Assembly (NCBI GenBank): GCA_052326485.1
Contig: JBKQMS010000003.1
Coordinates: 15,695-79,694 of the forward strand
Length of the DNA stretch: 64,000 bases
Direction of reading: 5' to 3'
From: Thermoplasmata archaeon
GTDB taxonomy: Archaea; Thermoplasmatota; Thermoplasmata; Lutacidiplasmatales; UBA184
Part shown: positions 9,944 to 63,112 of the stretch, in pieces
Position numbering within the stretch: the first letter of the stretch is position 1
Layout: every line of letters begins with the position of its first letter
Translations under genes and position numbers: made by a program
The notes under the pieces: model-generated
What the model was told of the DNA's origin: nothing
The model's database searches: none
The model's input: the letters and a program-made list of their open reading frames with translations, nothing else

Positions 9944-10906
9944 ATGTCGATCGCGATCTCGTCCGACCACCTCGGCAAGACGTACCCGAAGGCGCGGCCC
10001 GGGAAGTTCGCCCTCGAGGACCTCTCGCTCGAGATACCGACCGGACGGGTCTACGGGCTCATCGGGCGGAACGGGGCCGGCAAGACGACCTTCGTACGGA
10101 TCGCGTCGACCCAGCTCGCCGTCACGAAGGGGACGGTCTACGTTCTGGGGCACGACGTCCGGACCGAGGAGCGGGCGATTCGCACCCGCATCGCCTGTGT
10201 GCCCCAGGAGTCACGGCCCCTGTACTTCCTGAACGTCGAGGAGGTCATCTACCTCTACCTGAAGCTCCGCGGGCTCGATGCCCAGGATTCCCACCGCCGG
10301 ACGCGGGACGTCCTCGAGGAGCTCTCCCTCACCGAGTACCGTCGCCTGCTCGTCTCGCGTCTTTCCGGAGGGCTTCGCCGTCGGACCATGTGCGCGATGG
10401 TGCTGGCCTCGGACGCCGACGTCCTCTTCCTGGACGAGCCGACCACCGGTCTCGACCCGATCGCCCGCCGGGAGGTCTGGCAGGCGATCCGCCGGGCGAG
10501 CCGGGAGAACCGGACGATCGTCCTGACGACCCACTACCTCGACGAGGCCGAAGCCCTCTCCTCTCGCCTCGCGCTCATCGAGTCCGGACGGCTCAAGCTG
10601 GAAGGAACGCCCGCGGACCTGCGGGCCCGGGTGCGATACCCCTACCGCGTCACGATCCAAGGTGCCTTCCCGCGCGAGGAGCTGGACGGCTACGGGAAGG
10701 TCTCCGAGATCGAGGGCGGCACGCTCCTGTTCACCCGCGAGGCGGAGGCGCATGAGGTCGCGCGACGCGCCCTCGAGCGCGGCCTCCGGATCTCGATGGG
10801 TCCCGTGAGCCTCGAGGACATCTTCCTCGACGTCGTCGGGAGGTCGATCGAGGAGGACTCCAACTCCTCGGAGAAGGACGACGGCGGCGTGGAGGTCGGG
10901 GCATGA
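9944..10906 (+). CDS. ABC transporter ATP-binding protein
   Basis: Walker A GRNGAGKTT, signature LSGGLRRR, Walker B VLFLDEPT. Confidence 0.9.
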   Translation: MSIAISSDHLGKTYPKARPGKFALEDLSLEIPTGRVYGLIGRNGAGKTTFVRIASTQLAVTKGTVYVLGHDVRTEERAIRTRIACVPQESRPLYFLNVEEVIYLYLKLRGLDAQDSHRRTRDVLEELSLTEYRRLLVSRLSGGLRRRTMCAMVLASDADVLFLDEPTTGLDPIARREVWQAIRRASRENRTIVLTTHYLDEAEALSSRLALIESGRLKLEGTPADLRARVRYPYRVTIQGAFPREELDGYGKVSEIEGGTLLFTREAEAHEVARRALERGLRISMGPVSLEDIFLDVVGRSIEEDSNSSEKDDGGVEVGA

Positions 10907-11652
10907 GCCAACGCAACCGTCTGCGTTCGGTCTTCACCCTCGTCTGGCTGAACGGCATCATCCCCATCCGGACGACCCCTCTCTACATCCTGAATACGAT
11001 CGCCTCGCCGCTCTCGTTCCTCTTCTTCATCTTCATCGTTTCGCGCGGGGTCTACCTCAACTACGGGATCACCGGCGGCATGGTGCTCACGATGATGACG
11101 GTCGGAACGAGCCTCCAGTCCGACCTCACGCACTACCGGCACGACCTCAAGTTCCAGGACATCGTGGTCGCCTCGCCGGTCGAGGCGCCCGTCTACGTCA
11201 CCGGCATGGCGCTGAGCGAGCTCGTCTACTCCCTGCCGGCGCTCGCCGTGTTCGTCGCGCTGTTCGTCGCGTGGGGGCACGCCACGGTGACGAACCTCGC
11301 CGTGATCGCCGGGGTCCTCGTCCTCGTCTGGGCCTTCGCGAGCGCGCTCGCGTTCACGCTCGCCACGTACTTCCAGGACGTGCGCGAGACGTTCCTCTTC
11401 AGCCCGATGATCTCGCTCGTGCTCACCGTCCTTCCCCCGGTCTACTATCCGCTCTCCGCGCTCCCCGCGTGGGCTCAGACCGCCGCGCTCATCTCTCCGA
11501 CCACCTACGCCGCCGGGCTCGTCCAAGGGGCGTGCGGGCTCGGGCCGGCGCTCACGCTGTCGGGGGCGGCCGTCGATTGGGGGGTTCTGGTCGCGTTCAC
11601 GGCCGCCCTGTTCCTCCTCGCGGCCCTGAAGGCCCGCTGGAAGGAGCCCTGA
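10903..11652 (+). CDS. ABC-2 type transporter permease
   Basis: About 6 hydrophobic helices. ATGA overlap with the upstream ATPase gene. Confidence 0.8.
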   Translation: MSQRNRLRSVFTLVWLNGIIPIRTTPLYILNTIASPLSFLFFIFIVSRGVYLNYGITGGMVLTMMTVGTSLQSDLTHYRHDLKFQDIVVASPVEAPVYVTGMALSELVYSLPALAVFVALFVAWGHATVTNLAVIAGVLVLVWAFASALAFTLATYFQDVRETFLFSPMISLVLTVLPPVYYPLSALPAWAQTAALISPTTYAAGLVQGACGLGPALTLSGAAVDWGVLVAFTAALFLLAALKARWKEP

Positions 11653-11707
11653 GCGCCCGGAACGGGCCTCCGACGCGCGTCCGAGCGGGTCCGTCGCGCG
11701 AGGCCTT

Positions 11708-11974
11708 ATGTACCGGCCAAATGGTGGAGCCGCGATGCTTTCTTTCGCGGACAGTCGCGTCTTCGAACTGCCCGATGAACGCCTCTCTCGGTGTCTCTTT
11801 TGCGGGAAGGAGCTCGTGATCCTTCCGGACGACCGGCGCGGAGGCGCGTGCTTCGACTGCCTCGCGCTCTCCCTGCGTCCCCCCGCGCCCTGCCCGAGCT
11901 GCGGGATCCTGATCCCCGGCGAGGAGCGCGGCGTGGGCTGTGCGAACTGCCGGTGGTACCCTCTCCGCGACTAG
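11708..11974 (+). CDS. small double zinc-ribbon protein (four CxxC pairs), function unknown
   Basis: CLFC...CFDC...CPSC...CANC spaced as two zinc ribbons in 88 aa. Confidence 0.5.
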   Translation: MYRPNGGAAMLSFADSRVFELPDERLSRCLFCGKELVILPDDRRGGACFDCLALSLRPPAPCPSCGILIPGEERGVGCANCRWYPLRD

Positions 11975-12034
11975 CGTCGTCCCCCGCGTCTCCGCTAAGC
12001 TTATCGGTCGATTCCCGTCCGTCACCCAGGGCGT

Positions 12035-12152
12035 GCCGAGGTGGCTCAGTCCGGTACGGCGCGAGTCTGGAAAGCTCGTGGCGGAATACGCCTCGGGAGT
12101 TCAAACGCCGAGGACGGCCAACCCGTCGCGGCGGAGATTCTCCCCCTCGGCG
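12035..12152 (+). tRNA. tRNA-Ser (anticodon GGA) with a ~33-nt intron in the T-loop
   Basis: Acceptor GCCGAGG (12035-41) pairs with CCTCGGC (12145-51), followed by G73. Anticodon arm is CGAGT-CTGGAAA-GCTCG. Long variable arm GGCG-GAATA-CGCC. T-stem GGGAG (12095-99) pairs with CTCCC (12140-44) only after removing 12106-12138. Confidence 0.75.
12106..12138 (+). other. putative non-canonical tRNA intron (T-loop, position 59/60 or 60/61)
   Basis: Separates TTCAAA from T-CTCCC. Internal helices CGCCG (12106-10)/CGGCG (12129-33) and GACGG (12113-17)/CCGTC (12123-27). Ends in GGCGGAGAT. Confidence 0.65.
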
Positions 12153-12198
12153 CTCCCCGCTCGGCCCGGGATCCCATGAGGCGGGGTTCTCTCCCGCC

Positions 12199-12690
12199 AT
12201 GACGGTCCCGGACCGAGCCCGGGCCCCGGCACTCCTGCAGGTCGATGCGATCCTGTCCCGCCTAGCTGGCCGCCAGGCCCTGGCGGAGGTCTGCCGGTTC
12301 CTTCGACACTCGTTCCCCCACTACCCTTGGGTCGGGGTCTATCGGCTCGAAGGGACCGACCTCGTCCTCGACGCATGGGAAGGGCCTCAAGCGACCGAGC
12401 ACACGCGGATTCCCCTCGACCGCGGGGTCTGCGGTCAGGCGGCCCGCGAAGGTCGCACGGTCATCGTCGACGACGTTCGGTCCGACCCGAACTACCTCGC
12501 CTGCTTCCTCGAGACCCGAGCCGAGATCGTGGTCCCCGTCCGTCACGAAGGGCGCGTGGTCGGCGAGATCGACATCGACGGGAACGCGGTCAGGGCCTTT
12601 GACGAGTCCGACCGCCGGTTCCTCGAGGACGTCGCGGCGAAGCTCGGGTCCGCGGTCGAGCGATCGGGCGCCGAGCTGCCGCACGCGTGA
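12199..12690 (+). CDS. GAF domain protein (free methionine-R-sulfoxide reductase-like)
   Basis: YPWVGVYRL...GVCGQAAREGRTVIVDDV...YLACF...EIVVPV...GEIDIDG pattern of single-GAF fRMsr-like proteins. The upstream part of the 299-aa track ORF covers the tRNA and is rejected. Confidence 0.8.
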   Translation: MTVPDRARAPALLQVDAILSRLAGRQALAEVCRFLRHSFPHYPWVGVYRLEGTDLVLDAWEGPQATEHTRIPLDRGVCGQAAREGRTVIVDDVRSDPNYLACFLETRAEIVVPVRHEGRVVGEIDIDGNAVRAFDESDRRFLEDVAAKLGSAVERSGAELPHA

Positions 12691-13414
12691 GACCCGTCCC
12701 GATCGTCCCGAGCGCCTCGGAGAGCGCCGCGCGACGGTCGAAAGGCGTGAGGCGGGGCGGACGGGAGCTCTGTCGCCGCCGTACGGCCTGGCGGGCGACC
12801 TCGGAGAGCGCGCGCCGGAGCTCGTCCACGATCGGTAGGTCGGCGGCCCGGCTCGTGCGGGAGAGGGGGTTGAGGTCGACCGAGATGACGCGTTTCCCGA
12901 GGGCGCGGAGAGCCTCGGTCCGGTCCCCGTCCTCGAGCGGGACGAGGCAGACGTCGGCGTCGAGGATGCCCCGACGGTCGACCTTCGCCCGGTCGGAGGG
13001 GAGCCGGGGGATCGTCGCGGTCGGCCGCACGCCCAGCACCCGGCGCACGCCGGCCGCCCGCAGCACTTCGGCGACCCGGCGGGCCCGCGACCCGGTGCGA
13101 TGGAAGAGGTTCACCTCGACGTCCAGCCCGGGTACGGCCCGCGCGAGCGCCGCGACCTCCGGGGCCGCGAGGGCCGCGACGTTTCCGTTGACGCTGACGA
13201 CCGGGTGCCGGGCCGCGAGCAGCCATTCGGCTGCCGCCCGCTCGGCCCGCCGGGCGCCGGGGGTCGTGCGTTCCCCAAGGAGGTAGTCGAACGCCTCCCC
13301 TCGGCCCTGAGCGATGAGCCCCTCCGGAACGACCAGGCCCTTCCGGTGCGCCTCGGCGAGGGCGTGTCGCACCTTCAGGCTCGCATAACGGGGGTGGCGG
13401 GGTGAAAGGCGCAT
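12590..13414 (-). CDS. phosphopantothenate synthetase (archaeal 4-phosphopantoate--beta-alanine ligase)
   Basis: RGEAFDYLLGE, VVSVNGNVAAL, EVNLFHRT, LVPLEDGDRTEAL and SVDLNPLSRT motifs of the archaeal CoA-pathway enzyme. The C-terminal tail overlaps the GAF gene. Confidence 0.85.
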   Translation of the reverse strand: MRLSPRHPRYASLKVRHALAEAHRKGLVVPEGLIAQGRGEAFDYLLGERTTPGARRAERAAAEWLLAARHPVVSVNGNVAALAAPEVAALARAVPGLDVEVNLFHRTGSRARRVAEVLRAAGVRRVLGVRPTATIPRLPSDRAKVDRRGILDADVCLVPLEDGDRTEALRALGKRVISVDLNPLSRTSRAADLPIVDELRRALSEVARQAVRRRQSSRPPRLTPFDRRAALSEALGTIGTGLTRAAARRPIARPRTRASPRRPRGTGGRTRQRP

Positions 13415-13426
13415 CGCAGCGTACGC

Positions 13427-14152
13427 CTAGTGCGCTTCTGGCGGGGGGTCGGTCGTCGCCTCGGCGGCGGGTGCCCGGCGGCCCTCGAGCGCCGCGATGC
13501 GTTCTTCGAGCGGGGCGAGGCCGTCCTCGATCGCCTTCGTGAGCGTGAGCTTCAAGCTCTCCTCGAGGGCGACCAGGTCCCGGCCGAGGTCGATGATCCG
13601 CCGGGCGTTCTCGTTGAGCAGGAGGCGGCTCTGGGTGGAGACGCGGTAGGTGTCGGACAGGTCCTTCGTGAGCTGATGGGACGACTGGGCGAACGTCTCG
13701 ATCGAGGCGCCGACCGGCTTCCACTTCTCCTCGAGGTTGGAGGTGATGGTCGTGGAGAGCTTGTCGGTCGCGGACTGGATTCCCGTGGAGAGCTCGCGAG
13801 AGACCCGCTCGCCGAGCGACGTCTCCATCCCCTCGAGCCGGGTCTTGACGTCCTGGCTCACCTCTTGGCTGCCGGTCTCCATCCGCTGGAGGCGGTCCTC
13901 GACCGCCTGGAGGCGGGCGAGCAGGTTCGAGTAGGCGGTCCCGATGAGCGTGTCGGCGTGCGCCTGGCTCAGCTCCTGGCCTCGGAGGAGGAGGTGGAGG
14001 ACCCAGTGCTCCCGCCCTTTCGTCTCGGAGAGCGGTCCCCGGTCGACCCGGTCCCGGACCTCCCGGTCGTCGATGAGCGTCTGGAGCTCTTTGAGGACCT
14101 CCACCCGAAGGAAGGAAGTGGTCCCCCCGGGGTTCGCAGGGCGGCCCGCCAT
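13427..14152 (-). CDS. hypothetical coiled-coil protein
   Basis: Balanced amino-acid composition and long heptad-like helical stretches. The opposite-strand 408-aa ORF is R/G/P-rich junk. A TATA box lies 25-32 bp upstream of the ATG. Confidence 0.6.
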   Translation of the reverse strand: MAGRPANPGGTTSFLRVEVLKELQTLIDDREVRDRVDRGPLSETKGREHWVLHLLLRGQELSQAHADTLIGTAYSNLLARLQAVEDRLQRMETGSQEVSQDVKTRLEGMETSLGERVSRELSTGIQSATDKLSTTITSNLEEKWKPVGASIETFAQSSHQLTKDLSDTYRVSTQSRLLLNENARRIIDLGRDLVALEESLKLTLTKAIEDGLAPLEERIAALEGRRAPAAEATTDPPPEAH

Positions 14153-14176
14153 CGCCGGAGCATGGGGTTACCGCGG

Positions 14177-14184
14177 CTATATAC
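14177..14184 (-). promoter_or_regulatory. TATA box (GTATATAG on minus strand) for the coiled-coil gene; near-leaderless
   Basis: Read directly; 25-32 bp upstream of the ATG at 14152. Confidence 0.45.
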
Positions 14185-14272
14185 GTTGGCCGGGACCAGG
14201 GCCCGCTTACGTTCGGGCCGCCCGGGGTGCGCCTCCGGTCCCGCAGCGACGGCCCGGGTCCGGGAGGGCGGC

Positions 14273-15427
14273 CTATTCCACGAACTCGCGGCCGAGCAGC
14301 TCGCGGGCGACGATAAGGCGGCGGATCTCCGACGTGCCTGCCCCGATTTCGAGCAGCTTCGCGTCCCGGGCGAGCCGTTCAAGGGGAAGGTCTCGCATGT
14401 ACCCGTACCCCCCGTGGATCTGGATGGCGTCGAGGGCGACGCGGGTGGACGCCTCGGAGGCGAACGTGAGCGCCGCGGCGCTCGCCCGAAGGATGCGGTG
14501 GTCGGTGCGCACGGTCTCGAGCGCGGCGTACATGAGCCACCGAGACGCCTCGAGGTCGGAGTACATCTCCGCGAGCTTCGCCTGGATGAGCTGGAAGCGC
14601 CCAATCTTCTGCCCGAACTGCTCGCGCTGTCGGGCATAGGCGACCGAACGGTCTAGGCATTCCGCGATGATCCCGACGGGGATCGCGGTGAGGACCGCCC
14701 GCTCCACGTTGAGGCCGCTCATCATGATCCGGACCCCATCGTTCTCCTTGCCGACCAGCTGGTCCCGGGGGACCTCGACATCCTGGAACGCGAGCTCTCC
14801 CGTGGGCGAGCCCCGCATGCCCATCTTGTCGAGGCTCTTCGTGACCGAGAACCCGGGGGTGTCGCGCCGGACGAGGAACGCGCTGATGCCACGAGAACCC
14901 TTGTCGGGGGCGGTCTTCGCGTAGACCAGCATCATGTCGGCCACCGGGCCGTTCGTGATGAACTGCTTCGTGCCGTTGAGACGGTAGTGGCCGCCGTCCC
15001 GCTCGGCCCTCATCCGGATGGAGACCGCGTCCGAGCCTGCGTCCGGCTCGGTGAGGGCGAGGGCCCCGACCGCCTCTCCCGCCGCCGCGGCCGGGAGGAA
15101 CGCCGCCCGCTGGTCGTCGTCGGCGTTCCGGGCCACGTTGTCGGCGAAGAGGTTCGAATGCGCGCCGACGCTCAGCGCGAGGGCGGGGCTGACCCGCGCG
15201 ATCTCCTCGAGCACCAAAGCCTGGGCGACGTACGAGAGCCCGAGCCCTCCGTACTTCTCGGGCAGCGTGAGCCCGAGGAAGCCCTGTTCCCCGAGACGCG
15301 CGAAGACGTCCCTCGGGAAGTGGTCCTCCCGGTCCATCCGCTCGGAGACCGGCGCGATCTCCTTGCGGGCGAAACGTCGGGCGGCCTCGCGGAGGTCCTG
15401 CTCCTCCCGGGAGAGAGTGAGGTCCAT
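14273..15427 (-). CDS. acyl-CoA dehydrogenase
   Basis: Full-length ACAD architecture: N-terminal [14 protein letters not shown], middle [14 protein letters not shown]-terminal [32 protein letters not shown]. Confidence 0.9.
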
Positions 15428-15469
15428 GCCCGGGCGACATTGCCCGAGGCCATACGGTTGTCGCGAGGA

Positions 15470-17038
15470 CTAGGAGCGGCGGCCGGGGGCCTTCTTCCGC
15501 ACGATCCCGATGTGGAACCGCCACTCGGGCCGGCGGGCCGGGAAGTCGGAACGGTAGTGGGCCCCCCGGCTCTCCGTGCGGGTGAGCGCCGCGCGCGATA
15601 CGAGCGAGGCGGTCAGGACCGCGTTGGCGACGGGTCCCGGCAGGTCGGCGGCGCGGCTCGGCTCGGTCGACCTCCCGAGCCCGGCGAGCTCCTCGAGGGC
15701 GGTTCGAAGGCCGCTTCCCGTGCGGACGATCCCGACGTTGTCCCAAAGGAGGTCACGGACCCGGTCGACGGCCTGGGCAAAGTCGGCGCGCCCCGCGCCC
15801 GAGGACCAGGCGAACCGGACCAGACGACCGGGCGACGGCACCGGGCTCGGGACCGGATTCACGAGCTGGCGCGCGACACGTTCCCCGTAGACGAGTCCCT
15901 CGAGGAGAGAGTTGCTCGCCAGGCGATTGGCCCCGTGGACACCGGTGGACGCGACCTCTCCGCACGCGTAGAGCCCGCGGAGGCTCGTCCGGCCCTCGAG
16001 GTCGGTCGTCACCCCTCCGATCATGTAGTGGGCGGCGGGGGTGACCGGGATCCAGTCGCGCGACGGGTCGAGACCGTACGTCGCGAGAAAGCGGCAAACG
16101 GAGGGGAAGCGAGCGAACAGGCGGTCCCGCGAGATCGCGGTCGCGTCCAGATAGACGCACGGGTGACCGGACCGGTGGATCTCGCGGTCGACAGCCCGAG
16201 ATACGATGTCGCGGGGCGCGAGCTCGGCGTCCCGATGGTGTCCGACCAGGAACCGTTCGCCGGCCTCGTTGCGGAGGACGGCGCCCTCTCCTCGGAAGGC
16301 TTCGGTGATCAGGTAGCGGGGCACACCCTCCCGCCAGAAGACCGTGGGGTGGAACTGGATGAACTCCATGTCGGTGAGGAGCGCCCCGACCCGGAACGCG
16401 ATGGCGAGACCTTCTCCGGTCGCCACGGAGGGGTTCGTGGTCTGTCGGTAGAGGCTGGCCGCGCCGCCGGTCGCCAGGACCACCGGGCCGGCCTCGGTCT
16501 CCTCGACGTTCCGACCGCGATCGTTCGAGATGAAGGCGACCATCCCGTCTCGACCGGTCGCCCGCAGCCCGCGAAGCACGGTCCGCTCCCGGACCTCGAT
16601 ACCGGCATCCAGGACCTTTCGCTTCAGGGTCTCTTCGATCGAGAGGCCGGTGGCATCCCCGCCGGCGTGAAGGATCCGCGACCGGGAGTGCGCGGCCTCT
16701 CGTCCCAGCGAAACCTGGCCCTCGATCGTGTCGAAGGGGACGCCGTACCGGACGAGGTCTGCGATCCGCGCCGGAGCCTCGTACGTGAGCGCCTTGGCTG
16801 CCGCGCGGTCGACCAGGCCGGCCCCCGCGCGGAGCGTATCTTCCAGGTGGAGGGCGGGAGAATCGTCCGCCCCGACCGCCGCGGCGATTCCGCCCTGAGC
16901 GTACCGGGTGTTGGACTCCTCGAGACGAGACTTCGTGATCAACGTCGGTCGTAGGCCGAGCTCTCGGCAGCGGAGCGCGACGTACAGTCCGGCGATGCCC
17001 GTACCGACGACCAGCGGACGACCGTCGTGGTCGCGCAC
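15470..17038 (-). CDS. nadB: L-aspartate oxidase
   Basis: FAD dinucleotide fold VVGTGIAGL; YAQGGIAAA, HPT and GLYACGEVASTGVHGANRLASNSLLEG motifs. GTG start. Confidence 0.9.
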   Translation of the reverse strand: MRDHDGRPLVVGTGIAGLYVALRCRELGLRPTLITKSRLEESNTRYAQGGIAAAVGADDSPALHLEDTLRAGAGLVDRAAAKALTYEAPARIADLVRYGVPFDTIEGQVSLGREAAHSRSRILHAGGDATGLSIEETLKRKVLDAGIEVRERTVLRGLRATGRDGMVAFISNDRGRNVEETEAGPVVLATGGAASLYRQTTNPSVATGEGLAIAFRVGALLTDMEFIQFHPTVFWREGVPRYLITEAFRGEGAVLRNEAGERFLVGHHRDAELAPRDIVSRAVDREIHRSGHPCVYLDATAISRDRLFARFPSVCRFLATYGLDPSRDWIPVTPAAHYMIGGVTTDLEGRTSLRGLYACGEVASTGVHGANRLASNSLLEGLVYGERVARQLVNPVPSPVPSPGRLVRFAWSSGAGRADFAQAVDRVRDLLWDNVGIVRTGSGLRTALEELAGLGRSTEPSRAADLPGPVANAVLTASLVSRAALTRTESRGAHYRSDFPARRPEWRFHIGIVRKKAPGRRS

Positions 17039-17118
17039 GAGAGAGCGAGCGGGGCGCGTGGTATAGCGGCTTCCCCCAGCGGGGGGGCTGTCGTATACCT
17101 GTTCGGCCTCCGGGGACC

Positions 17119-18516
17119 GTGCCCGAGAGCGAGCCCCCGTCCCCGAACCCGTGGGAGGCGGTCGTCTCTGTCCGAGGGGACGCCGCGCTCGAGAAGGAGC
17201 TCACGAGCCGACTCGAGCTGGAAACCGGCCTGAGGTCCATCGGGGTCACCGCCCTCATCTCGCTGCGCCGGGCCTTCTATCGGGCGTTCGCGCCCGCCGT
17301 TCCCATCCCTCCCGCCCGCCAGGTCCGCCTCGACCAGGGCCGCGCCCTCCATCGGACGCTGGGGACCCGCCTCGCTCGCGAAGGGGTCCTCGAGGCGCGG
17401 GTCCGACGGGACGGGCTCGTCGGACGGATCGATATCCTGGCCGAGCTCCCGATTGAGGTGAAGACCGCGACCGCGCTCATCGACCCATCGGACCTCCCGG
17501 GCTACCGACCCGACCACATCGAGCAGCTCGGCATGTACTGCGCGCTCGTCGACCGGCCCGCCGGCCGACTCCTCACCTTGGTCGCGAGCCCGGACGGCGT
17601 CTCCGAGGTACAGGCCGTGGATGTTACGTTCCGATCGACCGCTCGGATCCTCTCCGAGATGCGGCGCAGGGCCGACCTGCTCCGGGCAGCCTGGGGCGAG
17701 GCCCGCGTCGACCCGCTTCCGAGGTGTCCGTGGTACGGTCGGGGTTGCGAGTTCGAGGAAGCCTCGGTGTGCGCGTGCACGGGCGGGGAGCAGCCCGTCC
17801 CCCACCCTATCCCCGAGGAGGTCGAGACGATCTCCGCGAGGGACGACGTCCGGGACCGGGTCCGCGCCGCGCTTTCCGAGCCGATCCCGACCGAGGAGAC
17901 CTCACCAGTGGGGCGGTTTCGGGAACTGCTCTACCCTCGGCGTGCCTACTTCGACCGGACCGCTCCCGTCGCGGCCCCGACCGAGGCCCCGACGACAGTT
18001 CCTCCTCGAGAGGTTTCGCCCCCCTCCCCGAAACCGGACCTCTACGCGCGGTTGAGCGAGGCGCTGGAGTGCGGGCCTGCCGGGGAGGTCGCGCGGCTAC
18101 CGGCCCGGTCGGCCGAGCCCGAGGAGGAGGTGGTCGGGTTCCGGGGCCGTCCGTTGTTGATGAGGACATCCCGCGTGTGGGGGCGCTTCCGAGAGGATGA
18201 GGTCGTCCGGCGAGCTCCCCAGTACGCTCTCGAGCTCGGGTTGCGGTGCGCCACCACGGGGACGGACTCCGGGGTCGTCGTGGTCGGGTTCGAGCGGGCC
18301 AAGGCCGACCGCGACCGGCTCCAGGTCCTCGAGCTCCGTTTCGCCTCGCTCACCCCGTTCTCTCGGTTCTACCGGGAGCGCAGCCGCAGCCTCGCGGGCG
18401 CGGTCCGCGACCGGGCGCCGGCGGGCCTGCCGGCGTGCCCGGACTGGATGACGTCGGATTGCCCCTACCGGTCGGAGTGCGGCTGCGGGGGGTCCGAGGT
18501 CCGCGTGACGCGGTAG
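17119..18516 (+). CDS. hypothetical protein with a PD-(D/E)XK nuclease-like N-terminal half and a degenerate duplicated C-terminal half, each ending in a Cys cluster
   Basis: First half has GRIDIL..IEVKT, QLGMYC and CPWYGRGCEFEEASVCAC. Second half has GFRGRPLLMRTSR, QYALELGL and CPDWMTSDCPYRSECGC. Confidence 0.6.
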   Translation: MPESEPPSPNPWEAVVSVRGDAALEKELTSRLELETGLRSIGVTALISLRRAFYRAFAPAVPIPPARQVRLDQGRALHRTLGTRLAREGVLEARVRRDGLVGRIDILAELPIEVKTATALIDPSDLPGYRPDHIEQLGMYCALVDRPAGRLLTLVASPDGVSEVQAVDVTFRSTARILSEMRRRADLLRAAWGEARVDPLPRCPWYGRGCEFEEASVCACTGGEQPVPHPIPEEVETISARDDVRDRVRAALSEPIPTEETSPVGRFRELLYPRRAYFDRTAPVAAPTEAPTTVPPREVSPPSPKPDLYARLSEALECGPAGEVARLPARSAEPEEEVVGFRGRPLLMRTSRVWGRFREDEVVRRAPQYALELGLRCATTGTDSGVVVVGFERAKADRDRLQVLELRFASLTPFSRFYRERSRSLAGAVRDRAPAGLPACPDWMTSDCPYRSECGCGGSEVRVTR

Positions 18517-19430
18517 ATCGTGGACCTCACCGTCGGCTCGAGATGGAACTCGTGGTACAGCCGGCGGGCGGGATCGTTGGCGGCCGTCACCCAGAGGTGG
18601 ACGCGCTCGTAGCCGAGCGCCCAGAGCGCCCTCAATCCCCACCGGAATAGGTAGCGGCCGTAGCCCTTCCGACGGAACTCGGGGTCGACCATGAAGTTCA
18701 CGAAGATCCCCTTACGCGGGGAGCGCTCGGCCGAGAGGATGGCCCCGACGAGACGCGGGGGGTCGGGTTGGTAGAGCGCGGTCGACGCCTCGTCCAGGAA
18801 CCGACCGAGGCTGCCGCCGATCAGCGCCTCGGTCACCCGGCGGTACTCCTCGACCCGGTCGCCGATCAACTGAGCGTCGAGCGTCCCGCGGACGGACCGG
18901 AAGTCGAGGTCGGCGAGTGCGTCGACTGTCACGGCGCGTATCGGGACGAGCGAGAGATGGTCCGGCACCGGACCGGGGGGTCGCCCGTCGTCGATGGTGA
19001 GGGAGCGCTCCATCGCCATGCGCTCGAGGACGGTCGCCCCCGGGCGCCCGGCGAGCCGGCCCAAGAGCTCCTCCTCGTGCGCGGGGGAGAGGCCCGTGAA
19101 CCCGATGTTGATCGACCGGACCTCTGGCGGCAACTGCTCGAGGAGTGCCCCCGCGAGGCGTTCGCCCCGGTCGACCGCGTCGGTCTCCTCGGCCACGTGG
19201 ACGTGGCCGTAGGCCTCCTCTCCGCTCACGGAGTAGAAGGAAACGCCTGCTCCCGGCGCGACGGGATAGTACCAACCCGGGGTCCGTCCCGAGCGGAGCT
19301 CCTCGGCCGTCCGCTCGACCCAGTCCCCCGCCGGCGACTCGTCTCGCGCGAGCAGCGCCTTGCGGACCTGCTGGACGATCTCGACGAGGTCGTCGAGGCG
19401 AGCTCCGGTCGCTTTGAGAGGCTCGTCCAC
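18465..19430 (-). CDS. GNAT family N-acetyltransferase (possibly tandem GNAT)
   Basis: C-terminal acetyl-CoA motif FRRKGYGRYLFRWGL...ARRLYHEFH. N-terminal ~150 aa are unassigned. Confidence 0.7.
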   Translation of the reverse strand: MDEPLKATGARLDDLVEIVQQVRKALLARDESPAGDWVERTAEELRSGRTPGWYYPVAPGAGVSFYSVSGEEAYGHVHVAEETDAVDRGERLAGALLEQLPPEVRSINIGFTGLSPAHEEELLGRLAGRPGATVLERMAMERSLTIDDGRPPGPVPDHLSLVPIRAVTVDALADLDFRSVRGTLDAQLIGDRVEEYRRVTEALIGGSLGRFLDEASTALYQPDPPRLVGAILSAERSPRKGIFVNFMVDPEFRRKGYGRYLFRWGLRALWALGYERVHLWVTAANDPARRLYHEFHLEPTVRSTIYRVTRTSDPPQPHSDR

Positions 19431-19450
19431 GGCCGGCTCCTGGGCGACCT

Positions 19451-20326
19451 CTATCCCGAGACGAGGCGTTGGAGGATCTGCGCGATGTCGGGAGCGACCG
19501 ACGCCTTCTCGGCGGGGTTCCCGAGCGTATCGGTCGAGTAAACGTCCCCCACGACCGCCTTGATCCGCTCGAAGGCGTCCTTGAGGAAGAGCCCGTGGGT
19601 GCAGGCGGCGCTGATCCCCACGGCCCCCTTCTTCCTAAGGAGCTTCGCCGCTTCGACGATGGTCCCGCCGGTCGAGATGACGTCGTCGATGAGCGCAACG
19701 TTCTTCCCCTCGACCGGAACCGGAAGCGTGGACGGCAGGGAGAGCTCTACGTGTTCGCTATCGATGCGTCGCTTCTCGAGCGCGAACCACGGCTTGTCGA
19801 GCAACTGCGCCATGCGTCGTACACGGTCGACGCCGCCCTTATCGGGGGAGACGAGCAGGTCGAGCGACCGCTCCGCCAGCAGCCGAGCGATTGCGGGGAT
19901 CCCGCTTGCCTCGAACGCCGGCTTCGTGAACTGCGTGAGGGTCTGGGACGAGTGGAGGTCCACCGTCACCACGGCATCGGCATCGAGCTCGACATGGCGG
20001 CAAAGGGCTCGCGCGCTCACCGGCTCGCCCGGGAAGAACCGCCGGTCCTGGCGCGCGTAGCCGAAGTACGGGACGACCACGAAGGTCCGCCGAGCCCCGG
20101 CCTCGCGGACCGCGTCCTCGAGCAGGATCAGCTCGAGGAAGTCATTGTCCGTCCGGGTCGACTGGACGACCACGACATCCTCCCCCTCGAGCCGGCCGCC
20201 GATGCGCACGTACATCTCGTCGTCCGGGAAGCGCTTCGTGAACGGGATCCCGAACGGCGCGTTGCCGAGCTCGCGGGAGATCCGCTCGGCGAGCGCGGTC
20301 GACGCGGTCCCACCGATGACGTGCAT
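19451..20326 (-). CDS. prs: ribose-phosphate pyrophosphokinase
   Basis: MHVIGG N-terminus, VVPYFGYARQDRR, and the PRPP loop IDDVISTGGT. Start is set at ATG 20326 because the TATA box at 20358-20365 is too close to the longer starts. Confidence 0.9.
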   Translation of the reverse strand: MHVIGGTASTALAERISRELGNAPFGIPFTKRFPDDEMYVRIGGRLEGEDVVVVQSTRTDNDFLELILLEDAVREAGARRTFVVVPYFGYARQDRRFFPGEPVSARALCRHVELDADAVVTVDLHSSQTLTQFTKPAFEASGIPAIARLLAERSLDLLVSPDKGGVDRVRRMAQLLDKPWFALEKRRIDSEHVELSLPSTLPVPVEGKNVALIDDVISTGGTIVEAAKLLRKKGAVGISAACTHGLFLKDAFERIKAVVGDVYSTDTLGNPAEKASVAPDIAQILQRLVSG

Positions 20327-20357
20327 TTCGACCCCCGACATTGGGACCCGGGGTAGG

Positions 20358-20365
20358 ACTATAAG
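20358..20365 (-). promoter_or_regulatory. TATA box (CTTATAGT on minus strand) of prs
   Basis: Read directly upstream of prs. Confidence 0.4.
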
Positions 20366-20449
20366 ATTGCGCGACGGCCCCAGCTCACCCGGTCCCCCCG
20401 GGCCGGTACGGCCGGTCACCCCCCCGTGCACGGAGGAGCGAGAGCGAGG

Positions 20450-21817
20450 CTACAGCTCGTCGTCCGAGGACCGCTTCTTCGCCGGCTTCTCAGACCGCCG
20501 AACGTGCGGCACCGGGCGGCCCCGACCGGCGGGCGTGTGGGAAGGGGGAGGTCGGGTCCGGCGGCGGCGATGGGTTTCCGCTTCGGGTTCCTCCTCCTCG
20601 TCCTCCGGGTGACGGCGGCGCAGCCGAGAAAGCCACCGACGCGGACCGGATTCTGCCGGCGCGGCTTCGGCCTCCTCGCGGGTCTTCTCCTCTTCTTCCT
20701 CCCGGGCCTTCTCCTCCTCCTTCCGACGAAGAGGTGTTTCGATGCCCTCTGTGCGGAACGCGTAGTGGATCCCGAAGGCGACCAGGATGACCGCGACGAT
20801 CGTGAGGCCCATGAACTGCCAGGATTGGGGGGGAACGCTGCCGGCTTGCCCCTGCAGGAGGAGCTTCACGGCGCCGAACCATGGGATCATGCCCCGGGCG
20901 ACCCCGATGATCCAGCCCGGTTCCACGAGCGTGCTGAACTGGGGCACATTGAGCTGGTCCGTCACCGTGTTCTTGTCCCCCATCGTGAGGAAGCCCGAAT
21001 GCATTCCGAGAGCGGGCGAGCCTAGGTCGATGGAGATGTTCACGGACTGCCAGCCGATCCGGTAGAGGTTGAGGGTACCGGTAAGGCCCGTGGTTTCGCA
21101 GTTCGCAGCCCCGCGTGGGGGGACGTACGAGTACGCGGGCGGCGCCGACGTCCCGCACGGAAGACCGGTGAGGTCTGTGGCGTTGTACGAGAAGCTGGTC
21201 GGGTTCCACTCGAGGTACAGGATCGCCCGATGGATGATGGGGGTGGACCCCTGCCCGTTCGGCCAATACAGGATCACATCGCCGTACTCTCCGTAGGTCG
21301 AGTAGCCGGTCCGAGCCCCCGCCTCGTACGAAGTGATTCCCGACAGCGGGACCTTCTGCGCGAGGACCAGGTCTCCCGTGTTGATGAGGCCGAGTTGGTC
21401 GGACGTGCCGTGCTGCATGCTGTCCGACTCCACGACGTACACCGGGGGCCAGTTCTGAGTGTAGGCGAAGAGCGAGACGAGCAGGATCACGATGATCGCG
21501 AGCGCGACCAACGGTTCGAAGAACAGGGAATCGCGGGCCCGCCAGTAGACCGTCTTCTTCCCGGAAGGGGGAGGACCCCGGCCGGTCCGGGGCCCCTCCA
21601 CTTCGTCCTCTTCCTCCTCCTCGTCGTGCTCGGAGGCGCGCCATCGTCGCACCGGCGTAGGACGCGGGCGACGATACCGACGCTTGGAAGGAGAACGCGC
21701 CCGCCGACGACGTCGGGGCTCTTCCTCCTCCTCTTCGTCCTCGTCGTCTGCCTCTTCCTCGTCTTCCTCCGGCTCGTCGTCGTCGTCGTCCGGCCGGACG
21801 GATGCGGCGCGGGGCAT
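20450..21817 (-). CDS. signal peptidase I (archaeal/eukaryal S26B type) with highly charged N- and C-terminal extensions
   Basis: TM helix followed by VVESDSMQH (Ser box), GDLVL, IIHRAI (His box) and TMGDKN (GDxN box), then a C-terminal TM. The tails are made of D/E and R/K blocks. Confidence 0.75.
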   Translation of the reverse strand: MPRAASVRPDDDDDEPEEDEEEADDEDEEEEEEPRRRRRARSPSKRRYRRPRPTPVRRWRASEHDEEEEEDEVEGPRTGRGPPPSGKKTVYWRARDSLFFEPLVALAIIVILLVSLFAYTQNWPPVYVVESDSMQHGTSDQLGLINTGDLVLAQKVPLSGITSYEAGARTGYSTYGEYGDVILYWPNGQGSTPIIHRAILYLEWNPTSFSYNATDLTGLPCGTSAPPAYSYVPPRGAANCETTGLTGTLNLYRIGWQSVNISIDLGSPALGMHSGFLTMGDKNTVTDQLNVPQFSTLVEPGWIIGVARGMIPWFGAVKLLLQGQAGSVPPQSWQFMGLTIVAVILVAFGIHYAFRTEGIETPLRRKEEEKAREEEEEKTREEAEAAPAESGPRRWLSRLRRRHPEDEEEEPEAETHRRRRTRPPPSHTPAGRGRPVPHVRRSEKPAKKRSSDDEL

Positions 21818-61280: not shown

Positions 61281-61316
61281 CGACGTCGACGCCCGACCTC
61301 ATCGGGGGTCTTAGCG

Positions 61317-61910
61317 TTGAGGCGCTCCCTCGGGAAACCGCATCCGCGGGTGGTCGGGGTCGACGACGGAGCGTTCGCGCGCGGGGACCGGTACGCGCCG
61401 GTCGCGGCCGTGATCCTGACGATTCCCGAGCATGTGGAAGCGGTACGCACCGGCCGCGTCCGGGTCGACGGGACCGACGGGACGAGACGGGTCATCGCGC
61501 TCGTCCGTCGCCTCGGGCCTCTCGAAGGAGTCCGCGCCGTTCTGGTGGACGGAGCGGTCGTGGGAGGGTTCAACGTGCTCGACCTGGACGCGCTCCACGA
61601 GCGGCTCGGTGTGCCGGTCGTCGCGGTCACGCGACGACCCCCTGAGTTCTCCCGGATCCGAGCGGCGTTGCGGAAATGGTTCCCTCGTTCGGCCGACGCC
61701 CGCTGGTCCCTCCTGCGCGCGCACCGACTGTTCCGGGTCCCCACGGGTGGCCAACCGATCCTCGCCGCCGCGGTCGGGTGCTCCCGAGCGGACGCCGCCC
61801 TCCTCGTCCGACGGTCCACCGTTCGGGGGCACTGGCCGGAGCCGCTCCGCCTCGCCCATCTCGTCGCGTCCGCCGGCCGCCGACAGGGTGGCCGTCCACC
61901 CAAGGATTAA
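61317..61910 (+). CDS. DUF99 (UPF0215, endonuclease V-like fold) protein
   Basis: VVGVDDGAF...VDGTDGT...VLVDGAVVGGFNVLDL pattern. Start is uncertain (TTG 61317 or GTG 61350). The first 361 aa of the track ORF are antisense junk. Confidence 0.7.
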   Translation: MRRSLGKPHPRVVGVDDGAFARGDRYAPVAAVILTIPEHVEAVRTGRVRVDGTDGTRRVIALVRRLGPLEGVRAVLVDGAVVGGFNVLDLDALHERLGVPVVAVTRRPPEFSRIRAALRKWFPRSADARWSLLRAHRLFRVPTGGQPILAAAVGCSRADAALLVRRSTVRGHWPEPLRLAHLVASAGRRQGGRPPKD

Positions 61911-61935
61911 GGAGGGCGGAAGCCGTCGGGCTCCC

Positions 61936-62042
61936 GGGCCTGTAGCTTAGCATGGACAAAGTCCTGGCCTTCTAAGCCAGTGAACTCGGGTTCAAAGGTC
62001 CCGGACGCCGGCCGCCCGGGGCGGAGACTCCCGACAGGCCCG
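61936..62042 (+). tRNA. tRNA-Arg (anticodon UCU) with a ~32-nt intron in the T-loop
   Basis: Acceptor GGGCCTG (61936-42) pairs with CAGGCCC (62035-41), followed by G73. D-arm GCTT/AAGT. Anticodon arm CTGGC-CTTCTAA-GCCAG. 5-nt variable loop. T-stem TCGGG (61986-90) pairs with CCCGA (62030-34) only after removing 61997-62028. Confidence 0.75.
61997..62028 (+). other. putative non-canonical tRNA intron (T-loop, position 59/60 or 60/61)
   Basis: Separates TTCAAA from T-CCCGA. Very GC-rich. Contains GGACG (62003-07) and ends in GGCGGAGAC, like the tRNA-Ser insert. Confidence 0.65.
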
Positions 62043-62047
62043 CCCGT

Positions 62048-63112
62048 TCAGCCCGGAGGTCCGACCTTGGCTGAACAGTTCTCGCAGAGGATCTGCTTCG
62101 GTCCCGGAGGCAGGGGAGCCCCGCAGAGCGGGCACGCGGCCCGAGCATCCGCGGCGGCGAGCAGCTCCTGCACGCTCGTCCGGAGCATCGCGTCCGAGCC
62201 GATGGCGCCCGGCCCGGCGGTCGCGGTGGGTTCAGCCCCGCTCGGGACGAACGCCTCGATCCGCGGCCGGTAGATGCCCGTTCGACGGTCGAACGTCACG
62301 AACTGGCGTGCGACCAAGCCCTGGAGGGCGGAATCGACCAGCTCCCGAACGCCGCCGAAGACGTGGGCCAGCTCGACCGAGGTCAGTCCCTGGGACTCCG
62401 TGAGGACCTCGAGACAGCGCGCGGCGAGAAGCGAGAGGTCACCCCGGCCGATGACCCGGTCGACCGCGAAGCCCATCCGGGCGGTCCGGCGGACCCGACG
62501 TGTCGGAGGAAGCCGGCCCGAGCGCGGGTCGGGGAGCAACGTGGTTCCGAGCAGGTCGAACTCGTAGCGGACCCGCTCCTCGGGGAGGTACATCGCGACC
62601 GCCACCGAGAACGGGAGGAGGCCCTGCTCGCGGAAGACCGTGAGCCCCCGGTCGAGCGTCCCGATGCTGGCGGCCAGGTTGACCCGATTGCCTCCGGCGG
62701 CGCCCCGGTCCTCGTCCCCTCGCGATCGAGGAAGGTAATGCTCGCGGAGAAGGAGCCGGGCGATCCCCCGCTCGGGGGGCCCGGGGATCGCCGGGTGGAG
62801 GTCCGCCGAACCGTCGGGGCGAAGGACGATCCGCTCGAACGGCCGGAGGAATCCCCATTCGTTGGGAGAGGGCGGGGGGTCGGGTCGGATCTCGAGCGTG
62901 GCGGGACTGGCCTTGGGGTCCGTGAGGAGGCCGTAGACGGTGGGGTACTCCGTACCGTTTCCGACGAAGACCACGGGAGCGAGGGGACGAGGCCGACGCG
63001 AGACGTACTCCTCGTAGGCGCGTGCCAACGCCCTTTCGCTGAACGGGTCGTGCCGCTCCCCGACCAGCCGTCGGGCGAGGGCGTCGAGCTCAGGCAGGGT
63101 TACCGACGTCAC
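62048..63112 (-). CDS. hypothetical protein with an unknown ~230-aa N-terminal domain, a wHTH and a C-terminal zinc ribbon
   Basis: wHTH-like LTSVELAHVFGGVRELVDSALQGLVARQFVTFDRRTGIYRP; C-terminal CPLCG...CENC. GTG start. Confidence 0.6.
   Translation of the reverse strand: MTSVTLPELDALARRLVGERHDPFSERALARAYEEYVSRRPRPLAPVVFVGNGTEYPTVYGLLTDPKASPATLEIRPDPPPSPNEWGFLRPFERIVLRPDGSADLHPAIPGPPERGIARLLLREHYLPRSRGDEDRGAAGGNRVNLAASIGTLDRGLTVFREQGLLPFSVAVAMYLPEERVRYEFDLLGTTLLPDPRSGRLPPTRRVRRTARMGFAVDRVIGRGDLSLLAARCLEVLTESQGLTSVELAHVFGGVRELVDSALQGLVARQFVTFDRRTGIYRPRIEAFVPSGAEPTATAGPGAIGSDAMLRTSVQELLAAADARAACPLCGAPLPPGPKQILCENCSAKVGPPG

Follow-up and report, generated by a model that had tools for sequence, protein, structure and literature searches.

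A probable bulge-helix-bulge intron in the T-loop of tRNA-Arg(UCU), retained across an order of high-GC Thermoplasmata

We analyzed a 64,000-nucleotide (nt) stretch of contig JBKQMS010000003.1, from a Thermoplasmata archaeon (hereafter the window), in which the gene for tRNA-Arg(UCU), at positions 61936-62042, is interrupted within its T-loop. The 32-nt insert lies between T-loop nucleotides 59 and 60. We consider it highly probable (roughly 0.9) that this insert is an archaeal bulge-helix-bulge (BHB) intron in a functional tRNA-Arg(UCU) gene, i.e. a spliceosome-independent intron of a known type that is previously undescribed in this lineage: a literature search returned no account of 59/60 T-loop introns in Thermoplasmatota. 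The same split gene, with covarying stems in its insert, is present in 78 of 80 related genomes, which places the arrangement far beyond chance.

The anatomy of the gene can be read directly. GGGCCTG (61936-61942) pairs with CAGGCCC (62035-62041) to form the acceptor stem, TCGGG (61986-61990) pairs with CCCGA (62030-62034) to form the T stem, and the T-loop consists of TTCAAA (61991-61996), the insert (61997-62028, plus strand; GGTCCCGGACGCCGGCCGCCCGGGGCGGAGAC) and a T at 62029. A first-pass annotation of this DNA had claimed that the two stems pair perfectly only across an insert placed after TTCAAA, and all these elements proved to be where it had put them: when the insert is subtracted from the 107-nt locus, the remaining 75 nt form a perfect tRNA-Arg(UCU), which ARAGORN folds flawlessly as tRNA-Arg(TCT). 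Exon 1 (61936-61996, plus strand) carries tRNA positions 1-59, with the anticodon TCT at 61971-61973. Exon 2 (62029-62042, plus strand) supplies U60, the 3' strands of the T and acceptor stems, and the discriminator G at 62042; the terminal CCA is not encoded. On unspliced DNA, ARAGORN proposes instead a distorted 79-nt gene (61935-62013) with a mismatched acceptor and a false T stem built from intron bases, and the Rfam tRNA model gives the locus 30.5 bits against a 29-bit threshold, the sole Rfam match in the window (E ≤ 1).

The intron and the loop that surrounds it can adopt a BHB structure. Its central helix, H, would be formed by U54, U55, C56 and A57 (61991-61994, plus strand) facing positions 62026 to 62023, giving a U.G pair, a U-A pair, a C-G pair and an A.G mismatch; the 3' strand of this helix, GGAG (62023-62026, plus strand), is the core of the motif that the intron shares with others discussed below. 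On either side lies a 3-nt bulge, one made of A58, A59 and the first intron base (61995-61997, plus strand), the other of A, C and U60 (62027-62029, plus strand). The rest of the intron makes a hairpin, h' (61998-62022, plus strand), in which 61998-62007 pairs with 62013-62022 around a 5-nt loop (62008-62012), with one mismatch (62005 A opposite 62015 C). Cleavage is predicted at both bulges, between 61996 and 61997 and between 62028 and 62029. We place the 5' cut there because of the 3-4-3 BHB geometry, and because splicing at 59/60 is the only choice that restores a 7-nt T-loop and leaves 3-nt bulges. Within the T arm, a 5-bp stem that carries a 7-nt loop, this site separates loop bases 6 and 7 and thus has the same geometry as the canonical 37/38 position of the anticodon arm.

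Covariation was measured over 37 distinct Arg precursors, all of 107 nt and aligned without gaps, by counting the pairs of the cloverleaf plus BHB structure. Over that whole structure 95.9% of cells were paired, against 30-53% when partners were slid, and no shuffle out of 500 attained the values observed. The T stem, which is the outer helix (h) of the motif, was paired in 100% of cells over its 5 bp. Hairpin h' was paired in 95.7% of cells, with double-sided compensatory changes at eight of its ten pairs (45 cells). The exon stems vary at only one pair, those of exon 1 being all invariant or G-U/G-C. RNAalifold, unaided, recovered the same hairpin and the same cloverleaf stems.

In the 37 precursors, U54 faces G (21) or A (16), U55 faces A (31) or G (6), and C56 always faces G. 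A larger set of 120 introns, found by their stems alone, gave the same picture: C56 faces G in all of them, U55 and U54 face purines only, and A57 (61994 facing 62023) is opposite G in 117 and opposite A in three, never opposite U. In approximately 90% of these introns the 3' bulge opens with A; its second base, which is the last of the intron, is variable, and U60 is invariant. An invariant G at intron base 2 pairs with an equally invariant C at base n-6, opening a hairpin of approximately 10 bp. The bulges A58-A59-i1 (i1 being the first intron base) and A-N-U60 are invariant, as is their spacing, and three of the four central-helix positions are standard pairs, the fourth being A57.G or A57.A. 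Judged from these patterns, the motif is a near-canonical 3-4-3 BHB that stops short of the strict form. Both bulges begin with A. Together with the A57.purine mismatch, these leading adenines may be a signature recognized by the processing enzyme.

From these elements a pathway can be proposed. The gene would be transcribed from its own promoter, with motifs resembling the B recognition element (BRE) and the TATA box, which overlaps the end of the upstream DUF99 gene. In the precursor, the outer helix would be supplied by the T stem. The GGRR at the 3' end of the intron would pair with U54, U55 and C56, while A57 faces a purine, to form the central helix, A58-A59-i1 and A-N-U60 would form the two 3-nt bulges, and the remainder of the intron would fold into the hairpin of approximately 10 bp. 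The tRNA splicing endonuclease, EndA, would cut after the second base of each bulge, and the RtcB ligase would join the exons to give the 7-nt T-loop UUCAAAU, CCA being added afterwards.

Several points weigh against this interpretation. The textbook BHB has a 4-bp central helix, while here three standard pairs are accompanied by an invariant A57.purine mismatch. By nearest-neighbour energies, the BHB fold (-19.6 kcal/mol) lies approximately 3 kcal/mol above the open-loop minimum free energy (MFE) structure (-22.8 kcal/mol). BHB motifs usually sit above the MFE in calculations of this kind, but the result lends the BHB reading no support. Neither EndA nor RtcB turned up in the window or in approximately 2 Mb of selected regions from related genomes; the search for EndA used phmmer and hmmsearch with the M. 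jannaschii sequence, which matches PDB 1A79 exactly, and with a small profile built from five EndAs. The alpha'2 enzymes of Thermoplasmatales type have been reported to need a strict 3-4-3 motif (PMC3239211; PMC5829648). Last, splicing itself is deduced from the sequence. We also considered a 4-3-4 pairing register, whose energy is alike (-19.2 versus -19.6 kcal/mol). It is disfavoured by the pattern of conservation, because it fails to explain why C56 never faces A and why U54 never faces a pyrimidine.

The relatives of the gene were reached through DUF99. A scan of GTDB representative genomes for this gene gave 80 loci from species-level Thermoplasmata metagenome-assembled genomes (MAGs) of soil and peat. 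A scanner for split tRNAs looked in them for a T stem, TTCRA, a complementary T stem strand 7-130 nt downstream and a 7/7 acceptor stem, and its candidates were spliced at 59/60 and then verified with ARAGORN. In the 78 positive loci, tRNA-Arg(UCU) lies directly 3' of DUF99 with an insert of 28-36 nt, and every orthologue spliced in silico gives a complete cloverleaf tRNA-Arg. Locus L071, in which the split gene was not recovered, belongs to a contig that ends at the gene; from locus L038 the tRNA-Arg(UCU) is missing. The 78 introns comprise 73 distinct sequences, and their identity between species drops from 0.95 to 0.63 as DUF99 identity goes from above 90% to 50-60%. Divergence of the introns thus tracks that of the hosts, which indicates that they are old and vertically inherited.

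Across the 80 DUF99 loci (1.25 Mb) no convincing intact tRNA was found. Two apparent ones, a Val in L041 and an Ala-CGC in L049, are poor folds within coding DNA, and an Asp candidate in L087 is likewise false. Running ARAGORN with its intron option (-i) on all loci produced just spurious "introns" of 100-1900 nt.

The trait is not confined to Arg. The window holds a second split gene, tRNA-Ser(GGA) (12035-12152, plus strand), in which exon 1 (12035-12105) and exon 2 (12139-12152) are separated by a 33-nt intron (12106-12138), again after TTCAAA, at 59/60, and with the same BHB layout. ARAGORN misses it, and its Rfam score of 22.8 bits is under the threshold. A relaxed scan of the whole window revealed no tRNA besides these two, and the earlier observations that a tRNA-Ser some 50 kb from tRNA-Arg is split at the same position, and that both tRNA genes of the window are affected, are thus confirmed. 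tRNA-Ser(GGA) is flanked by an ABC-2 permease gene and an archaeal phosphopantothenate synthetase gene. Rfam also reports a Guanidine-II riboswitch over the Ser intron and its 3' flank (12106-12176), scoring 16.1 bits where 32 are required (E = 0.92), which we judged to be chance; the weak match is driven by a GGACG/ACGR-like loop.

Among the DUF99 loci, 41 contain a tRNA-Ala(GGC) with a 28-35 nt insert at 59/60, approximately 8 kb downstream of DUF99 and on the opposite strand (for instance L004:18812-18917, minus strand; also L005, L009 and L010). The 41 introns are all distinct, against only five distinct mature sequences. The equivalent position would lie just past the end of our window.

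We then scanned metagenomes for tRNAs other than Arg(UCU) that combine an xDGGG T stem with the same junctions, and obtained at least 120 stretches; the 3' motif in these matches is imposed by the search pattern and provides no independent evidence for it. Among the matches listed (L083-L202), about twenty are chance. Those that we retain, again among the matches listed, include tRNA-Ser(GCU), whose inserts measure 30-34 nt, from loci with a guanine-cytosine (GC) content of 66-74%; Phe(GAA) in contigs of 27-38% GC (L093, L184, L109 and L161); and, in low- or mid-GC contigs, Leu(UAG) (L137) and Leu(CAG) (L088, L110 and L125), the latter seeming to hold a second insert further upstream. In addition, tRNA-Leu(UAA) carries inserts of 28-32 nt in at least 56 loci of 60-69% GC (about 64%), where the adjacent tRNA-Ala(GGC) is intact (e.g. 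L198 and L164). Covariation is seen in the hairpins of both the Ser(GCU) and the Leu(UAA) inserts, and covarying inserts at 59/60 are thus present in archaeal lineages beyond that of the window.

A protein flanking Ser(GCU) is 75-81% identical to proteins of Thermoplasmata MAGs, and one Ser(GCU) locus (L208) shares a MAG, SMAG_U10666, with one of the Arg loci (L068); from this sequence evidence, we assign the Ser(GCU) loci to the clade of the window. For the Leu(UAA) group, the one named match is to a Thermoplasmata MAG, the nearest, at 83% identity. At least four tRNA species of the clade -Arg(UCU), Ala(GGC), Ser(GGA) and Ser(GCU)- hence share the 59/60 layout, and removing the insert from Ala(GGC) (41 loci), Ser(GGA) and Ser(GCU) yields complete cloverleaves, as it does for Arg. 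The first-pass annotation had suspected a trait of the lineage rather than a one-off, and the Arg orthologues, the 41 Ala loci and the Ser(GCU) genes of the same clade bear it out. Conservation of the Ser(GGA) intron across the clade would be expected by analogy with the other three genes.

Different tRNA species are split in related groups, and introns must therefore have been gained or lost over long times. The trait is also widespread rather than universal, since SMAG_U10666 contains an intact tRNA-Thr(UGU) (L208:5879-5950, minus strand; also L130:162-234, minus strand). This gene has a bacterial-looking D-loop and sits beside HxlR, lactamase_B and hydrolase genes with no counterpart in the syntenic loci L203-L205, and it may have arrived by horizontal transfer.

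A shared position in several tRNA species raises the question of how the introns got there. The motifs common to the Arg and Ser(GGA) inserts had been taken initially as a hint of a possibly mobile or duplicative family of T-loop introns, of the form GGACG ... GGCGGAGAY. On this rival reading both would be copies recently distributed among tRNA genes. The motifs are real: both inserts contain GGACG (62003-62007 and 12112-12116, respectively) and terminate in GGCGGAGAC or GGCGGAGAT. Recent spread would also account for the common position, architecture and 28-36 nt length in at least four tRNA species of the clade, and for the pattern of the sister group, in which an intron in Leu(UAA) and an intact Ala(GGC) imply gain or loss among tRNA species. 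Besides, Arg and Ala introns are marginally more alike within a genome than between genomes (permutation p ≈ 0.05-0.07), and intron transposition is reported for Thermoproteales in a review (PMC4033280).

BHB pairing with the invariant T-loop, however, accounts completely for the shared 3' ending. This ending has the form ...C-G-G-R-R-A-N before U60, where the C pairs with intron base 2 and A-N-U60 is the 3' bulge. Read in this way, GGCGGAGAY comprises two bases of the hairpin, the C closing it, the G opposite A57, the G-R-R that faces C56, U55 and U54, and two bulge bases. A BHB intron at 59/60 in a UUCAAA T-loop must end in this way, and the shared motif is therefore a structural necessity; as for the 9-mer itself, the window contains five copies versus 5.9 expected. 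GGACG, in turn, belongs to the freely covarying hairpin and is missing from most orthologous introns, being found in 22 of the 78 Arg and nine of the 41 Ala introns. When the Ser intron was compared with Arg or Ala introns from other genomes, 26% of the pairs scored at least as high as the Arg and Ser introns of the window (alignment score 8), and once the constrained ends were stripped the similarity of these two was not significant against shuffles (13%). In the wider alignment of inserts that had been suggested, the 3' ending thus held up, as a BHB constraint, whereas GGACG was present in a minority of the inserts and the similarity of the Arg and Ser intron cores did no better than chance. 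We detected no sequence family beyond the BHB ends among the window Arg and Ser introns, the 78 Arg introns and the 41 Ala introns. An Arg intron present in nearly every species, whose divergence follows that of the host gene, also speaks of old, vertical descent. We consider a recently spread family unlikely, and there is no sign of recent intron mobility in these sequences. Spread between tRNA species in the past is plausible, because the sister Thermoplasmata group has an intron in Leu(UAA) and an intact Ala(GGC).

A second alternative is that the insert is never removed, and that the mature tRNA carries an extra hairpin protruding from its T-loop between 59 and 60. In the T-loop fold, positions 59 and 60 point outwards, and the T-loop motifs of other RNAs tolerate insertions there. 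The strong conservation of the hairpin structure would fit such an arm. Yet the 3' end of the insert is kept complementary to U54-C56, and this pairing would destroy the T-loop fold, so that it makes sense only in a precursor. The bulges and their spacing are fixed while intron length ranges from 28 to 36 nt, and the hairpin sequence and its loop vary freely among the 73 distinct introns, which is typical of a spacer and not of a functional arm. We regard a retained insert as very improbable. A decaying pseudogene or an assembly artefact of GC-rich metagenomic DNA, which the poor handling of the locus by ARAGORN and Rfam and the frequency of chance stems in a window of approximately 70% GC might evoke, is refuted for practical purposes by the agreement of independent assemblies (two Logan assemblies of the identical locus and the 78 MAGs), the invariant stems of the orthologues, the covarying introns and the conserved promoter-like element.

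A removable BHB intron in a functional gene remains by far the better explanation, and a broader proposal can be built upon it: that T-loop introns are obligatory in the whole of Lutacidiplasmatales and in at least one sister group of Thermoplasmata, where selection would hold them in several tRNA species, and that A57.purine and the A-first bulges are the signature of a lineage-specific endonuclease. We find this extension doubtful and offer it tentatively. If it were true, and if the enzyme were of the Thermoplasma alpha'2 type or a variant of it, the accepted rule, by which introns at non-canonical positions co-evolve with the broad-specificity (alpha-beta)2 or epsilon2 enzymes, would need revising. 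A role for the introns might be to hide the T-arm from elements integrating at tRNA genes, or to gate the modification of the T-loop.

Regarding the locus itself, the upstream neighbour of tRNA-Arg is a DUF99/Endo_dU gene (PF01949, E = 4.5e-49) at 61350-61910 on the plus strand (the start codon is approximate), and downstream, on the minus strand, lies an open reading frame (ORF) of 354 aa (62048-63112) with no Pfam match and a C-terminal CxxC...CxxC. The first-pass annotation had described these two neighbours as a DUF99/EndoV-like gene and an orphan wHTH/zinc-ribbon gene. Homologues of the DUF99 protein are annotated at 186 aa in Thermoplasmata MAGs, and the nearest ones (71-99% identity) all come from MAGs labelled "Thermoplasmata archaeon". 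In the public gene calls of two Logan contigs identical to this locus (L001 and L002), an antisense ORF of 182 aa (61311-61859, minus strand) was chosen over the plus-strand DUF99/Endo_dU gene; this ORF has no family match and is a typical mis-call in DNA of 70% GC.

The putative promoter of tRNA-Arg occupies 61902-61912 (plus strand), from -34 to -24 relative to the 5' end of the tRNA, and consists of a BRE-like AA followed by a TATA-like ATTAAGG. It corresponds to the sole A/T-rich stretch in the upstream profile of the 78 loci, where A at -34/-33 and T T A A at -29 to -26 occur in 52-64 of the 78; the conservation of this block may partly stem from the C-terminal codons of DUF99 (..PKD*). 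The TATA-like ATTAAG includes the DUF99 stop codon TAA (61908-61910), and the 25-nt spacing from DUF99 to the tRNA is retained in most loci of the order.

The surroundings of the gene look different in locus L017 (JAKIVU010000001.1, MAG AcS1-36). After DUF99 and the promoter, just the first ~20 nt of tRNA-Arg(UCU) are left (10585-10604), and from there (10585-20525) GC falls from approximately 0.69 to 0.54-0.63 for at least 10 kb, over ORFs that are mostly unmatched save for one AAA/clamp-loader-like ATPase. The remainder of the tRNA was not found within the locus, and scans of the low-GC island with Pfam and PHROGs revealed no integrase and no clear viral signal. An integrated element, a split tRNA gene or an assembly chimera may each account for this foreign-looking DNA.

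The host most likely belongs to the order Lutacidiplasmatales (GTDB UBA184), uncultured Thermoplasmata of high GC content. The window is at approximately 70% GC throughout (0.68-0.71) and carries an archaeal ribosomal protein operon (L3-L4-L23-L2-S19...) together with housekeeping genes for TFB, enolase, methylmalonyl-CoA mutase, CysRS, SecY and an archaeal phosphopantothenate synthetase. The 80 loci include MAG UBA184, with whose DUF99 protein that of the window shares 78% identity, and MAGs AcS1-36 and AcS1-67, for which identity is 69-74% and whose names resemble the AcS3-62 of the paper on Lutacidiplasmatales. That paper describes the order (formerly TMEG) as having approximately 69% GC and genomes of approximately 2.1 Mb, and tRNA introns are not mentioned there (PMC9287336).

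These introns have practical consequences for annotation. The T-loop-split tRNAs of an abundant soil and peat order are misfolded or missed by ARAGORN and score at or below threshold in Rfam, so that tRNA counts used for MAG quality, and inferences on codon capacity, can err unless an intron-aware archaeal mode is used. tRNAscan-SE 2.0 looks for non-canonical introns by default (PMC8450103). They also provide comparative material: more than 70 distinct, covarying introns in a single gene are an unusually good set for defining what a BHB needs at 59/60, and an order of Thermoplasmatota that keeps T-loop introns across approximately 80 species is a natural test of whether position or motif shape is what limits the enzymes.

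BHB introns at non-canonical sites, T-loops included, are a recognized class (PMC3241643). Reviews describe the introns of Euryarchaeota as restricted to the canonical position, present in fewer than 10% of genes and processed by strict alpha4 or alpha'2 endonucleases (PMC4090602; PMC4033280), the EndA of Thermoplasmatales being of the alpha'2 type (PMC5829648). The nearest precedent is ARMAN-2, whose pre-tRNA-Cys(GCA) has a 59/60 intron that is cut in vitro by its own epsilon2 EndA, and whose tRNA-Pro(GGG) has a strict BHB predicted around introns at 53/54 and 59/60 (Fujishima et al. 2011, PMC3239211). The likeness extends to the insertion site, the use of the T stem as outer helix, the short introns (13 nt in ARMAN-2 Cys) and the failure of standard tRNA finders to see such genes. 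The differences are as clear: ARMAN-2 is a DPANN archaeon, whereas our host belongs to an order of Thermoplasmatota; the Cys intron tested there has a relaxed hBH motif, and the one here a near-strict hBHBh' whose hairpin is long and covaries; in our clade one and the same gene keeps the intron across approximately 80 species; and the ARMAN-2 enzyme is an epsilon2 EndA of broad specificity.

Compared with the canonical 37/38 hBHBh' (3-4-3), as Marck & Grosjean 2003 is cited in PMC4090602 and PMC5829648, the match is close: a 5-bp stem, a 7-nt loop with the intron between bases 6 and 7, loop bases 1-4 that pair with the 3' end of the intron, 3-nt bulges with a cut, predicted in our case, after the second base, and an inner helix within the intron. 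It departs from this model in using the T arm instead of the anticodon arm, and in a fourth central pair that is always A57.purine. Finally, our lineage resembles the Thermoproteales in having many tRNA genes with non-canonical BHB introns. According to the accounts of Sugahara 2008 and Fujishima 2010 given in PMC4033280 and PMC8450103, the introns of that group occupy many positions, up to three in a gene, fall into sequence families indicating transposition, and are processed by an (alpha-beta)2 EndA. In the genomes that we have studied, in contrast, all introns seen occupy one position, with one in each gene, and their descent looks vertical.

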